Shown here in pieces: positions 18,527 through 47,134 of a DNA stretch of 64,000 bases. The stretch covers positions 60,698,001 through 60,762,000 of the forward strand of contig OZ024743.1 in assembly GCA_964016885.1 (NCBI GenBank). The letters run 5' to 3'. Numbering within the stretch: the stretch's first letter is position 1; every line of letters starts with the position of its first letter. The notes beneath the pieces are model-generated. The model was not told the DNA's origin. It made no database searches and saw nothing but the letters and a program-made list of their open reading frames with translations. The DNA is from Eledone cirrhosa (Eukaryota). Position numbers and translations under genes: made by a program.

Positions 18527-18684
18527 TGAAAGTTACCAGTTTAGTCTAGTAAGACTATTGTTCAACTTGGAGTTCGATAGTAAAGAAAGTATTATAAGTT
18601 ACTGCCCGGTGGCTGAGCTCTTGTCATTTCGACGGTGATTGGATAAATATCATACATCATTTATGTATATATATATATATATAT

Positions 18685-18864
18685 AACAAAAGAAGTGTGG
18701 TAAGGAACCAGATGGACCATAACGCACCAGTGTACTCGATACTTACGGTAGTAGAGTGAGTAACAGGAAAAGCGTTAGGACCCCGACGGCTGAGCTCCGG
18801 CCGTTTCGGCAGCTAGATTTAGCTGTCGAAACAGCCGGAGATCAGCCATCGGGGTTCTGACTCT

Positions 18865-24202: not shown

Positions 24203-24264
24203 AGAATAAGTAAAAGCGAAGTACTTTCAGATGTTCTTTAATAATAATGTCCTTTAATAATAAT

Positions 24265-24338
24265 GCTGTGATATATATTTCAATGACGACACTGGCCACA
24301 CTGTTCTGTGTGCGAGTGTCGTGACATCATCAGACAGC
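24265..24338 (-). ncRNA. Type I hammerhead (family g) copy 1
   Basis: gctgt-CTGATGA-tgtcacgacact...agtgtcgtcatt-GAAA-tatata-TC^-acagc. Confidence 0.8.
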
Positions 24339-25499
24339 TTGTTACATAATAAGGTTGTTTCCGAGGCAATCCAAATTGAATCGACATGGGAACGGATGAA
24401 GTTCGTGCCTTTGGGTTTTTCATCCGTTCCCTTGTGAGTACCAATTCACCCCCACCGGTCTGCGCAAGCGCATGTCCGAAGGAAGTTGACCATTAGCACC
24501 GCAGATTTCAACGAAATTCGCTGTCAGTGGCCCACCTATGCCTTGCCAAAGTTTACTGCTACACATCGCTACTGTGGTAGTCAGCCGAAAGCCAGAGGGG
24601 ATGGGAGGGTGTTAGTTTTTATAGGTCATAATACTACCTTTCACTAAGCGTTGACAGTAAGACTGACCATCAACTCATAAGGTAAAATAAACTTAATTCT
24701 AGGTACTATGGTTTTACATAGTAAGTTAAGAGTGAGAGTTGGGAATAAAAATTAAAATTAAAGGTTAAAATCCTAAATAAAATATCAGAGATTATAAATT
24801 AAACAATAAAGAATTCAAAAATTCTAAATTCAAAAAATTTTTTTCAAGTGATAATTCGGATTAAGTAAAGATATACATTGCAGTGAGTAAATAATATGGA
24901 GAGAGATGTTTAAGTAATATGTTCTGGGAGGGATTCTTGTGTTACAGATATTGAACGGCAGTGCCGGACCTTATAACGGAGGGCAAACCACATGGTTCAA
25001 GGCATTGGTCAATCCGCTACACGGTCATACTTTCCATCACATGGAACAGAGTCAAAGAAAAACAGACAAAAAGTACACAAAAGAGAACACAAAAGAAAAG
25101 AAAAGAACAGAGACAATAGTGAATAAATGCAAAAACACAGAGTACATATATGTAAAATGATCCATATGATTGTCCATCTGGTGCAGGAAAATAGGGGTTT
25201 ATCTTATTTTTTGTTTCCGCGTATTAATCCTGCCGAAAGATACTATTACGCCCGTCCAGTGTCAGGGGTTTTTCATCCCCATGGTAGAGGGGATTTCCGG
25301 GGTAGCTCTTGGTTGGTTCCTCACTTCTCCACCATATCGGTTACATCATAGAGCGCTCAACTAATCGGAGCTAAATTATTAGGGTAAACATTGATGCAAT
25401 TCAATTCAAGCACTCAACGTACTTTTTCCACATAGGAGTGACGGAGTAAATATCGAATAAGTAAAAGCGAAGTAGTTTCAGATGTTCAAGTCCTTTAAT

Positions 25500-25573
25500 G
25501 CTGTGATATATATTTCAATGACGACACTGGCCACACTCTTCTGTGTGCGAGTGTCGTGACATCATCAGACAGC
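25500..25573 (-). ncRNA. Type I hammerhead (family g) copy 2
   Basis: Same motif as 24265-24338. Confidence 0.8.
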
Positions 25574-25866
25574 TTGTTACATAATAAGGTTGTTTCCGAG
25601 GCAATCCAAATTGAATCGACATGGGAACGGATGAAGTTCGTGCCTTTGGGTTTTTCATCCGTTCCCTTGTGAGTACCAATTCACCCCCACCGGTCTGCGC
25701 AAGCGCATGTCCGAAGGAAGTTGACCATTAGCACCGCAGATTTCAACGAAATTCGCTGTCAGTGGCCCACCTATGCCTTGCCAAAGTTTACTGCTACCCA
25801 TCGCTACTGTGGTAGTCAGCCGAAAGCCAGAGGGGATGCCTCGGAAACAACCTTATTATGTAACAG

Positions 25867-25940
25867 GCTGTCTGATGATGTCACGACACTCGCACACAGA
25901 ACAGTGTGGCCAGTGTCGTCATTGAAATATATATCACAGC
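25867..25940 (+). ncRNA. Type I hammerhead (family g) copy 3, inverted
   Basis: Same motif on the + strand. Confidence 0.8.
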
Positions 25941-26071
25941 ATTATTATTAAAGGACTTGAACATCTGAAACTACTTCGCTTTTACTTATTCGATATTTAC
26001 TCCGTCACTCCTATGTGGAAAAAGTACGTTGAGTGCTTGAATTGAATTGCATCAATGTTTACCCTAATATA

Positions 26072-27991: not shown

Positions 27992-28022
<31 letters not shown>

Positions 28023-28034
28023 GGAACCAGTAAG

Positions 28035-28128
28035 ACCCCGACAGCTGAGCTCAAGCCGTTTCGACGGCTAATTCTGGACTAAATGAAAATTTATCCTGGT
28101 ATTTAAATAGCCGATCTTCTCAAGGGGT
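28035..28128 (-). ncRNA. Type I hammerhead with U3:A8 core (family h), same strand as the PLE ORF
   Basis: Reverse complement of 30223-30316. Confidence 0.7.
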
Positions 28129-29297
28129 AATTCCATATATGGTCAAAGTGATTGTCAAAAATCAGTAGTAATTCTGTGGTTGCAAATTAGTAGGGGAGAT
28201 GGTGGCTAAACCTGCCAGTAGGAAAAAGAGGGGAGGGGGTAGAGTAGCCCCAATCAAGCGTTTGTAGTGCCAGCTACAGCTGGGCATGAGGTCAGTCAAA
28301 GAAGATACAGGGGAGGGGGAGGGGGAGGAAGTCGGAACGGTAGGTAGAACAATGGGGGGTAGAAATATATAGGAAAGAAAAAATACTGAGAGTGAAGAAA
28401 AGCAAATAAGTGTAAAGAAAAACAAATGAGTGTAAAGAAAAAAGTAAAGTAAATTAAATTCTACGACCTAGGTCTCTAGCTATTGTTAGTCTAGAATAAA
28501 TAAATAAAGAAAGAAAGAAAGAAGTAAAGAAAGAAATAAAGAAATAACGAAATAAGTAAAAGAACTAGGTGGGACGGAATAGGCGAGGACCCTTTTAAGA
28601 GGTATAAGTACGTAAATGATACGGTGACGGGTCAACAAAAGGGGCCAAAATACTAAAGAGACTACCACGAAATAAACAATAAAGGTTTCCATCCCGGGCG
28701 CAATTCCAGCAACCACCCAGTGCAGCAAAGTGAACTAATACGAGATAATAATTCTGAGTCCCGAGAAAAATATATACGAATGCTAACTCTAAAAGATCTA
28801 AAACAAGCTACATGAAAGTTCGTACGAAGTAAAGGTAGAATACGGAAGAATAAATTCAGAATCCACCCCGCCCAAAAGAAAAGCGAAGAAAGGAATACTG
28901 AAACGAAAAAATAAGGCATAAGTGCCACTAAGAAATATAGAGGGCACGGAGAATAGTGGGAGCGGTCGGAAAAAGGGGACAAGTATCCGGGGTCTAAACC
29001 AACTGCTATAAAGGGCGGAGTCCGCCAAATCTATCCTAGACTAGGGGAGGGGGTGGGGGTATTAAGGCTACAAGGGGCCAAAGGGCAGCCTCGGGTGGGC
29101 GAGAAAAGACACCGACAAAGGAGAAGAGCTGGGGTAGAAGGACTAAGGAGAGAGGGGGGAAGGAAGGAAATAAAGGAAGCGATAAAAGAATACAAAGAAG
29201 AGCTTACGTCTCCCTTGGCAAGCAGGGGTTACCCATTGCAAAATCGGCAAGTGGGGTGTTATAGCCCTAGTCTACCCCCCCCCCCCCCCCCCCCCCC

Positions 29298-29498
29298 GGG
29301 GTCATTATGGGGTTTGAGGGCGAGGTAAGTCCTACGCAATCTATGTTTACATGCAGTAACCAGTTCATCTTTCTTGTTTAGGAGTTGGTCCGTCGAAAAC
29401 AGCATTTGTAAAGTTTCCTCCGAGCATAAATTGCACGGACGGCGTCCTCCCGTGTAAGAATTGGCTCTGGACAGTAATCTCCAAGTGAGATCATAGGT
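29298..29498 (-). pseudogene. C-terminus of a Penelope-like GIY-YIG endonuclease domain (not in the ORF track)
   Basis: TYDLTWRLLSRANSYTGGRRPCNLCSEETLQMLFSTDQLLNKKDELVTACKHRLRR matches the PLE pattern W.IL..A..Y.....C.LC..E......LLNK..EL...C.H. Confidence 0.8.
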
Positions 29499-30222
29499 GA
29501 TTCTTCCGTATTCTACCTTTACTTCGTACGAACTTTCATGTAGCTTGTTTTAGATCTTTTAGAGTTAGCATTAGTATATATTTTTCTCGGGACTCAGAAT
29601 TATTATCTCGTATTAGTTCACTTTGCTGCACTGGGTGGTTGCTGGAATTGCGCCCGGGATGGAAACCTTTATTGTTTATTTCATGGTAGTCTCTTTAGTA
29701 TTTTGGCCCCTTTTGTTGACCCGTCACCGTATCATTTACGTACTTATACCTCTTAAAAGGGTCCTCGCCTATTCCGTCCCACCTAGTTCTTTTACTTATT
29801 TCGTTATTTCTTTATTTCTTTCTTTACTTCTTTCTTTATTTATTTATTTATTTATTCTAGACTAACAATAGCTAGAGACCTAGGTCGTAGAATTTAATTT
29901 ACTTTACTTTTTTCTTTACACTCATTTGTTTTTCTTTACACTTATTTGCTTTTCTTCACTCTCAGTATTTTTTCTTTCCTATATATTTCTACCCCCCATT
30001 GTTCTACCTACCGTTCCGACTTCCTCCCCCTCCCCCTCCCCTGTATCTTCTTTGACTGACCTCATGCCCAGCTGTAGCTGGCACTACAAACGCTTGATTG
30101 GGGCTACTCCACCCCCTCCCCTCTTTTTCCTACTGGCAGGTTTAGCCACCATCTCCCCTACTAATTTGCAACCACAGAATTACTACTGATTTTTGACAAT
30201 CACTTTGACCATATATGGAATT

Positions 30223-30316
30223 ACCCCTTGAGAAGATCGGCTATTTAAATACCAGGATAAATTTTCATTTAGTCCAGAATTAGCCGTCGAAACGGCTTGA
30301 GCTCAGCTGTCGGGGT
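30223..30316 (+). ncRNA. Type I hammerhead with U3:A8 core (family h)
   Basis: acccc-TTGAGAA-ga(t)cggcta...tagccgtc-GAAA-cggct/tgagctc/agctG-TC^-ggggt. Confidence 0.7.
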
Positions 30317-30407
30317 CTTACTGGTTCCTATTACCCACTCTACTACCTCAAGTATTGAATACTTTGGTGCGTTATGGTCCACCTGGTTCCTTACCACATT
30401 TCCTTCG

Positions 30408-30472
<65 letters not shown>

Positions 30473-37142: not shown

Positions 37143-37645
37143 AATATATATATATATTTATACGTGTGTGTGTATATGATGTGTATGAATATGTAATGAA
37201 TAGACAAGTAAGATGAAGTAATTTGAGATATTCTATTTATCTTACACATGTTTCAAGAGAGAGAGGGAGAGAGCGAGAGAGAGAGAGCTAATATGTGAAT
37301 CAGATATATATATATCATCCCATTCGACGTTTTATAAATCATGCCATTGAACCAACCCTGGATTTATTAACTTCGAAAGAAAATAAGGCTGGATATAAAT
37401 TCAGAATACAGAGAAGCATTCTAAAGGCTCTGTTATTTCACCACCTTTTTTCTATTTGATGTAGAACAATAATTGGCTGCTGATGTTGTTGTTAGCACCG
37501 TGTGTTGCACAGAAGCACTGATGAGATATCATGATTAAGCATTTTCATATGGCTCTAACAGGATAGATGTGCATGCGTGCACATACATATGCATACACAC
37601 TACATTACAAACACACACTCACACATACATACATACATACATATA

Positions 37646-37830
37646 TAGGAAAAAGTATGACCCCGACGGCAGAGCTCAAGCCGTTTCGACGGAGAAATAG
37701 CCGTCGAAACGGCTTGAGCTCTGCCGTCGGGATGATACTTTTTCCTATTAGCCACTCTACTACTTTAAGTATTGAGTACTCTGGTGCGTTATGGTCCATC
37801 TGGTTCCTTACCAGATTTCCTTCGTTATAT
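37646..37830. mobile_element. Fold-back fragment of HHR family h
   Basis: ccccgacggcagagctcaagccgtttcgacgg / ccgtcgaaacggcttgagctctgccgtcggg; axis ~37698. Confidence 0.8.
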
Positions 37831-38185
37831 ATATATATATATACATATATAGTATTAAGGATACTATTTATGGTTATGTATATAATAAAACCTTTTATGG
37901 TTATATATATTTAAACTCTAAATAGTGAGATTCTAATTTTAACTTTAATTTTGTCCTTTAATATGAATGTAACCTTTGTATGTAAATTGCCATGATATAT
38001 CATTATGATGGATGTCAACCCACTGTGGGTCAATATATACATATGTTTTTGCATGTCTCTTGTGTTGATAAGGAGGTCAAGTATGTGAAAAATCACTAAA
38101 TAGTTGCTCCGAAGAATCCAAACCTCGGTTTGGAGGAAACAATTGTAAGCAAATATATGATTTAAACTGAACTTTGATTCATCTA

Positions 38186-38366: not shown

Positions 38367-38447
38367 GCTCTGCTGATGAATGAAATCCAACCGTGACCAT
38401 CTCCACTGAAAGTTTTCATGAAATAGTCTTTTAAGACTATACAGAGC
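38367..38447 (+). ncRNA. Type I hammerhead (family j) copy 1
   Basis: gctctg-CTGATGA-atgaaat...gttttcat-GAAA-tagtctt/tt/aagacta-TA^-cagagc. Confidence 0.88.
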
Positions 38448-42354: not shown

Positions 42355-42410
42355 ACTGCCTGATGAGGTCATAGCCATTCAATGGCTATCATCGAAATAT
42401 ATATAGCAGT
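42355..42410 (+). ncRNA. Type I hammerhead (family c), intact
   Basis: actgc-CTGATGA-ggtcatagccatt/c/aatggctatcatc-GAAA-tatata-TA^-gcagt. Confidence 0.82.
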
Positions 42411-42679: not shown

Positions 42680-43203
42680 TGTATATATAGTGTATTTTGC
42701 AACACACTGTATGCTTAATTAAAAGCATTTCGAAGACCTTCCCCTATTGTTTTAGAGTAGTGACAGTCTCACTTGCTTTAATTTTCAGCAAACAGGGGAG
42801 ATAAAGCTGACAGGCTCTGTTTCGCACTTTTTGGTGCTTATCAAAGCTAAGTACTCCACCTGTTTGCTGAAAATCATGAATGTTTGATTCTTATAGAATT
42901 CTAGTAATAATCAGGACTGATTATACAGAGCGGTTGCCGGTCAAGCAGAAATTGAAAATTAGAATTGGTGCTCTGAAATACAGATATATATATGAATGTA
43001 TATATAGTGTATTTTGCAATACATTGTATACTTAATTAAAAGCATTTCTCCCCTGTTTGCTGAAAATTAAAGTAAGTGAGACTGTCACTACTCTAAAACA
43101 ATAGCGTAAGGTCTTCGAAATGCTTATAATTAAGCATACAGTGTATTGCAAAATACAGTATATATACATTCATATATATCGCTATTTCAGAGCACCAATT
43201 CTA

Positions 43204-46771: not shown

Positions 46772-47134
46772 GTATATATGTATATATACATATACATATA
46801 TGTATGTGTGTGTGTTTCTGTGTGTGAGTAGAAACATTTTTCAAAAGACTATAAAGAAAATATTTTTGAAAAGACTCTTAACACAGCTGAAACCGGTAAA
46901 AAGTAAACAGAAATTTATAAATAATTATCAAATTACTTGGTACAATAATACAGAAACCCTCTAAATAAAGGAAAGGCTAATCATTCCTTTTTTCAAAGCT
47001 TATTTTCCCTATAATCTCTGACTTGTAAAGAAATCCCTTACGTTTTAATTTCTTCATTATATATATATATATAACGAAAGAAGTGTGGTAAGGAACCATA
47101 TTGACCATAATGCACCAGAGTACTCAATACTTTT

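Follow-up and report, generated by a model that had tools for sequence, protein, structure and literature searches.

A two-armed PLE insertion within a (TA)n tract

The window, meaning the whole 64,000-nt stretch of Eledone cirrhosa DNA analysed here, contains a fold-back PLE insertion (28020..30410) that is flanked on both sides by (TA)n (Table 1). Its two inverted arms (28020-28851 and 29500-30331) each span 832 nt and show 5 differences between them, and the hammerhead is identical in both, in agreement with the ~830-bp hammerhead-bearing inverted arms described in the initial annotation. The placement of the downstream hammerhead on the ORF strand was likewise recovered, with the hammerhead at 28128-28035 (-) and the ORF end at 29501-29292 (-). 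All residues encoded by this ORF end (70/70) were identical to the C-terminus of the intact protein P0001. The 96-aa frame previously read as a PLE ORF end is correct for these last 70 codons, while its first 16 residues derive from the inverted arm. The main-arm tail ends 20 nt past the predicted cut and the second-arm tail 99 nt past it, and 2 nt of microhomology were found at the junction between the arms. Among 140 contexts from sampled loci, 61 short tail ends and 52 long tail ends ran into (TA)n.

Table 1 Features of the PLE insertion and of related arrays; positions refer to the window unless a genomic location is given.
Feature	Position	Strand	Remarks
Two-armed (fold-back), 5'-truncated insertion of an apparently young PLE assigned to the Hydra clade	28020..30410	(.)	Within (TA)n tract
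Main arm: ORF end, ~1.1-kb 3' region, hammerhead, short tail	28020..29501	(-)	93% identity to intact unit over 1483 aligned columns
Type I hammerhead, main arm	28035..28128	(-)	U3 (28123):A8 (28118); predicted cut after C17 (28040)
C-terminal remnant of RT-GIY-YIG ORF (CxxC..E..N..CxH)	29259..29501	(-)	Longer G run carries the frame to 29259
Inverted second arm: 3' region, hammerhead, long tail	29500..30410	(+)	
Type I hammerhead, second arm	30223..30316	(+)	U3 (30228):A8 (30233); N7 (30232); C17 = 30311; palindromic loop III
Main 5' boundary of mini-insertions, inside loop II	30267..30277	(+)	Probable transcription start
G1.1, first base past the predicted cut; second 5' boundary of mini-insertions	30312	(+)	
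Tail with two insertion 3' ends (30331, 30410)	30317..30410	(+)	Putative RT initiation sites
Head-to-tail arrays, five hammerhead copies each	L046-L049, G000:C1 437.20 Mb and 91.47 Mb		

The PLE family has also left older mini-insertions, which comprise only the hammerhead 3' half or the tail, at 37645-37831, 18680-18815 and 47068-47132 of the window. Direct and inverted repeats (a 300-nt direct pair and 108-123-nt inverted pairs) form a separate nest at 24249-26069.

Intact elements and their placement in the Hydra clade

A search of the same genome with the 62-residue remnant returned 45,587 candidates, and every scored match was 100% identical (150/150). Intact frames lay within twenty fetched genomic regions, and the full elements that the peptide had been expected to recover were obtained as intact 3.5-kb tandem units. 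Unit length was 3,531-3,543 bp and the intact ORF encodes 717 aa, counted from the first Met. Units within an array differed at 0-1 or 2-7 sites, compared to 26-30 sites between arrays, and in one array alternate units were more alike. Together, the identical matches and the five-copy arrays indicate that the element family is young.

The 717-aa protein consists of a telomerase-like RT followed by a C-terminal GIY-YIG domain, without an N-terminal EN, and this combination in a single ORF of the intact units bore out the original assignment to PLEs. Its predicted structure (pLDDT 84.9) had telomerase as the best fold match (TERT 3du5, E 1.4e-9), and the VIY..YIG motif aligned in the GIY-YIG domain. 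No significant Pfam family was returned for the remnant, for the intact protein or for 19 aligned relatives. Scoring of 7,996 database candidates yielded at least 2,049 relatives, and the 120 listed were mostly ~40% identical. A tandem or inverted pLTR structure with a tail, as expected of PLEs, was also present.

Craig et al. (2021, PMC8557442) define the Hydra clade by RWK, DKT, a CxCx5C linker, CxxC..E..N..CxH and the absence of CCHH. The element carries RWR (RWK in most relatives), DKT and the CxCx5C linker; CxxC and CxH flank E and N, CCHH is absent and a single Cys lies inside the GIY-YIG core. The (TA)n insertion preference of the Hydra clade was found as well, and the element protein agreed with the published Hydra alignment when the two were compared by eye. 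On these motifs and this by-eye alignment, the element is assigned to the Hydra clade of PLEs. The C-terminus had at first been likened to Naiad-type elements, and a Naiad whose hammerhead was overlooked owing to its U3:A8 core would account for the (TA)n targeting and the 3.5-kb length. However, Naiads have an N-terminal GIY-YIG, a CxC linker to the RT and a DKA motif, whereas the element here combines a C-terminal endonuclease with DKT and a CxCx5C linker, and it lacks CCHH. Naiad identity was rejected by the domain order of the intact units and has almost no remaining probability.

Structure of the variant hammerhead

The hammerhead is 94 nt long and has the core U3-U4-G5-A6-G7-A8-A9 (UUGAGAA), GAAAC, a GUC site and an ACCCC/GGGGU stem I. 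Stem II comprises 8 bp with a bulged U, is closed by G10.1-C11.1 and carries a loop II of ~37 nt; stem III comprises 6 bp with a palindromic GAGCUC loop. Every component named in the initial annotation (UUGAGAA, the G-C-closed stem II, GAAAC, the 6-bp stem III, GUC and ACCCC/GGGGU) was found again in both arms. The features of a type I hammerhead were all present, namely three helices, the conserved core, the 3-8 pair, G10.1-C11.1, A15.1-U16.1 and NUH, and the 3-8 pair is missing in the C3·A8 subfamilies described below. The minimum-energy fold was a three-way junction whose stability was not above that of shuffles (z = -0.96), and an extension of stem I appeared in one predicted fold only. 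The predicted dimer fold had an energy of -61.9 kcal/mol versus 2 x -22.7 kcal/mol for monomers. A U3:A8 descriptor matched three sites in the window (the two arms and an unrelated site at 42844) and had no match in any of 100 dinucleotide shuffles. No hammerhead match at the coordinates of the element appeared among the 150 of 189 Rfam matches listed.

Core positions 3 and 8 across the genome and the ORF tree

Exact whole-genome patterns gave 5,642 matches, comprising 4,134 with U3:A8, 1,463 with C3·A8 and 45 with any base at position 3 and G8; the control, in which patterns were run backwards, gave 0 matches. The C3 variant was absent from contigs built over the hammerhead from DNA runs, which probably reflects upstream loose ends, and these contigs were excluded from the core counts; the best of the runs may be the source of the assembly. 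U3:A8 is thus the majority state (4,134/5,642) and also the core of the active subfamily, as the family consensus had been predicted to be. The view that the core is compensated holds for this majority; it does not extend to the 1,463 matches with unpaired C3·A8, which belong to lineages that amplified. Position 7 was G, A, C or T across subfamilies and A8 was constant. As N7 is free to vary in hammerheads, this combination of a varying N7 and a retained A8 is in line with a hammerhead under selection.

Of the 69 linked copies, 32 entered a tree built on the 3'-terminal ORF sequence (up to 600 nt); 17 were excluded for a length below 390 nt and 20 as young, nearly identical copies. Two core-label changes were recovered in all bootstrap trees (200/200). 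The tree formed a ladder in which the most diverged copies had U3:A8, followed by 12 C3·A8 copies (a grade with several supported nodes) and then by younger U3 copies, among which the active copies fell. The most diverged copy served to root the tree, and this rooting is not independent. An outgroup hammerhead search returned 166 matches, with the 5' half in only 1 of 30 loci, so the root rests on the most diverged copies; if it lay inside the C3·A8 grade, U3 would have arisen twice. Under either rooting, the sequences indicate that a lineage amplified with an unpaired 3-8 position. Exact arm matches numbered 3,731 and 17,165 for the two C3·A8-linked tails, the latter tail also occurring in some U3 copies, and 14,840 for the U3:A8 tail. 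In total, the C3·A8-linked lineages left >20,000 arms in the genome.

Two 5' boundaries of mini-insertions

The hammerhead 3' half was far commoner than the 5' half, with 9,909 exact matches in the youngest subfamily alone. In the first 30 loci of the 3'-half search, the truncation point fell between 30267 and 30295 for 27 of 29 distinct arms. Fold-back insertions with both arms reaching loop II and <=24 nt between them numbered 6,390, which is a lower bound for starts in loop II, and the longer arm began at 30267-30275 in 27 scripted loop II fold-backs. The boundary spreads over ~10 nt and coincided with a >10-fold depth step in one DNA run. PLE promoters are located in the pLTR, and the sequence at the boundary resembles an initiator element. 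Transcription probably starts inside loop II. Counts for an extra cap-derived G at the boundary (842 with G versus 987 with A or C) are confounded by junction microhomology. An RNA that starts in loop II lacks the U3-A8 strand, and its 5' hammerhead therefore cannot form. A splice acceptor at this boundary was considered and rejected, as the sampled short copies join the other arm or flanking DNA with no common upstream exon. Long T runs directly preceded the boundary in some mini-insertions (L333, L334, L355).

The second boundary lies at G1.1. By-eye inspection of 20 loci from 172 matches identified 16 true 5' ends at G1.1 and four G-run expansions. In 28 fold-backs G1.1 was the exact end of both arms, which were separated by a single untemplated A/T, and neighbouring registers of this two-arm design were empty (0 for one base shorter, 0 for two bases longer). 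A further 30 G1.1 fold-backs had untemplated spacers of 2-7 nt. Among the first 50 of 319 very short fold-backs, read by eye, the longer arm ended at G1.1 in 30 (19 unambiguously, the others within one base or mutated), 2-3 nt upstream in 3 and further downstream in 0. By analogy with R2, such precise ends with untemplated bases would fit RT run-off at an RNA 5' end, and these genomic footprints suggest that the hammerhead cuts at GUC in vivo. G1.1 is also the end of the G run and of stem I, and an RT stop could contribute to the ends there.

C3·A8-linked tails as a natural control

Linkage between tail and core was scored in a non-random sample of loci: the U3 tail was linked to U3 in 53/53 copies, the older control tails to C3 in 18/19 and the middle tail to C3 in 32/34, some U3 copies of the middle tail having been missed by the search expression. 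In the C3·A8-linked tails, G1.1 ends were read by eye in 8/50 (of 76) and 9/50 (of 311) fold-backs. Per 1000 read-through arms, this equated to ~3.3 and ~3.3 G1.1 ends, compared to 12.9 for the U3:A8 tail. The strict two-arm G1.1 pattern occurred once in C3·A8-linked tails versus 28 times with U3:A8 (p = 0.012). Per copy, G1.1 ends are thus about fourfold rarer in C3·A8-linked lineages, reduced but not absent; the drop is not assignable to position 3 alone, since stem II (pair 10.2-11.2), stem III and age also vary between the subfamilies. The older tails had more centre-collapsed fold-backs. Our reading is that efficient cutting is not needed for spread.

Proposed mechanism and its alternatives

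We consider it fairly likely, from these genomic patterns, that in vivo the U3:A8 hammerhead cleaves at GUC in a minority of transcripts and that this is probably not required for retrotransposition. The endonuclease would cut both (TA)n strands, and RT would start internally in the tail at two positions, +20 and +99 nt relative to the cut site. Each strand would receive one cDNA, and the pair, each member begun at a different tail site, would then be joined head to head, each arm running to the template 5' end or stopping early. Most templates would begin in loop II, at the probable promoter start, and their 5' hammerhead, without the U3-A8 strand, would be uncuttable. A minority would begin at G1.1, where a complete hammerhead had been cut in a read-through or tandem transcript. 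The window copy would be a longer example, copied through uncut hammerheads. Cutting may possibly proceed by a dimer via the palindromic loop III.

On balance, there is an even chance that the fold-back mini-insertions can be read as a genome-wide record of template 5' ends and as in vivo evidence of cutting, with U3:A8 to C3·A8 to U3:A8 forming a mutation-and-rescue series in which cutting fell ~fourfold and the element still produced copies by the tens of thousands. If true, PLE hammerhead cleavage would be real and under selection, but not rate-limiting for retrotransposition.

The hammerhead might instead be a non-cutting relic or a protein-binding fold, with G1.1 ends produced by RT stalling, either on the G run or on stem I, or by deletion of the palindrome centre after insertion. 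That the family amplified with C3·A8, that the fold energy is no better than that of shuffles, that minimal hammerheads of PLEs show poor cleavage in vitro (PMC4209133) and that centre-collapsed fold-backs are commoner in older tails all fit such a relic. However, stalling or collapse sits poorly with the single-base precision, the untemplated spacers and the empty neighbouring registers. Moreover, the C3·A8-linked lineages have the same G run and stem I, yet ~fourfold fewer ends. The return of U3 on the youngest branch and the retention of A8 beside a freely varying N7 also argue against a relic, which we regard as unlikely. Less probable still is the opposite possibility that cleavage is required, such that unit-length cut RNA is circularised and rolling-circle RT yields the tandem master arrays, with C3·A8 keeping enough activity through a C·A wobble or protein help. 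A rolling-circle model has been proposed (PMC4209133) and would accommodate the five-hammerhead arrays, their unit differences (0-1 or 2-7 within versus 26-30 between) and the residual G1.1 ends in C3·A8-linked tails. Yet the greater likeness of alternate units in one array also fits later duplication, most templates start in loop II and not at the cut, and hammerhead mutants insert normally in vitro (PMC11167929).

Relationship to known systems

The closest published elements are those of the Hydra clade (e.g. Hydra-1_Obim and Hydra-2_Amil; Craig et al. 2021, PMC8557442), which share the single ORF with RT then GIY-YIG, the same motifs, the (TA)n target, a hammerhead near the 3' end and inverted truncated copies. 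The unit here is longer, at 3.53 kb compared to generally under 3 kb for the published Hydra elements. All 26 Hydra rows (26/26) of the hammerhead table in that paper have a C3:G8 core and a short loop II, whereas the family here combines a U3:A8 or C3·A8 core with a ~37-nt loop II and a stem III of 6 bp, and its stem II/III motif had 0 matches in the available part of the PMC8557442 supplement.

The variant core itself is not new, as U3:A8 in PLE hammerheads is already published. Cervera and De la Pena (2014, PMC4209133) described U3-A8 minimal hammerheads with ~1,300 matches in the Cercyon PLEs of Schistosoma mansoni. Cercyon resembles the present family in the U3-A8 covariation within the pLTR hammerhead, the long helix II, the short helix I and the palindromic helix III region, but belongs to a different PLE clade and has a minimal helix III where the family here has a full 6-bp helix; the available text of that paper reports neither in vivo evidence nor a C3·A8 lineage. 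In vitro activity has been stated for natural U3-A8 hammerheads (Perreault et al. 2011, PMC3088659); they show the same compensatory core change, with neither a PLE link nor an unpaired state described in the accessible text.

In the Poseidon element PAc of Anolis (2024, PMC11167929), both target strands are cut and extended and two internal RT start sites make the tail, as proposed here, and the hammerhead is dispensable for insertion in vitro. PAc differs in its C3:G8 core and in having tail sites inside the ORF. In the portion of the PAc report available, RNA-seq gave no reads ending at the cut site, whereas here the ends appear in genomic insertions. Genomic 5' junctions also reflect the cut site in R2 elements with HDV-like ribozymes (Eickbush et al. 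2013, PMC3774820), although these involve a different ribozyme and retrotransposon class and the cut is their normal 5' end rather than, as here, a minority class. Neither hammerheads nor Hydra come up in the main text of a 2026 octopus-genome repeat annotation (PMC13282606).

What appears to be new here is the cut-site footprint and the C3·A8 phase; no description of cut-site insertion ends or of a C3·A8 lineage in PLEs was found in the literature searched, which covered few subscription papers. On the role of PLE hammerheads in vivo, the 2014 paper (PMC4209133) states that in vivo evidence is absent and the 2021 paper (PMC8557442) calls their function unclear, in the parts available. The family described here gives a countable readout of cut templates together with natural core mutants of different ages, which makes the question directly testable, and the same counting is applicable to other PLE families.

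Other hammerheads in the window

The other hammerhead repeats of the window had initially been tied to this PLE, a connection that the comparison did not support: those at 38373 and 39004 match only each other and that at 42844 belongs to a different family. The former two (+) are canonical CUGAUGA hammerheads in a 631-bp direct repeat, with a sequence unrelated to the PLE hammerhead. A loose scan gave further CUGANGA...GAAA candidates at 42360 (+) and 57841 (-). The unrelated repeat family at 42800-42850 (-) has a U3:A8 hammerhead (UUGAUAA, 4-bp stem II, palindromic stem III), with 1,936 candidates in the genome and U3:A8 in all 20 loci read (20/20). One copy of this family (L234) adjoins a Hydra-like ORF that is 40% identical to that of the PLE described here.
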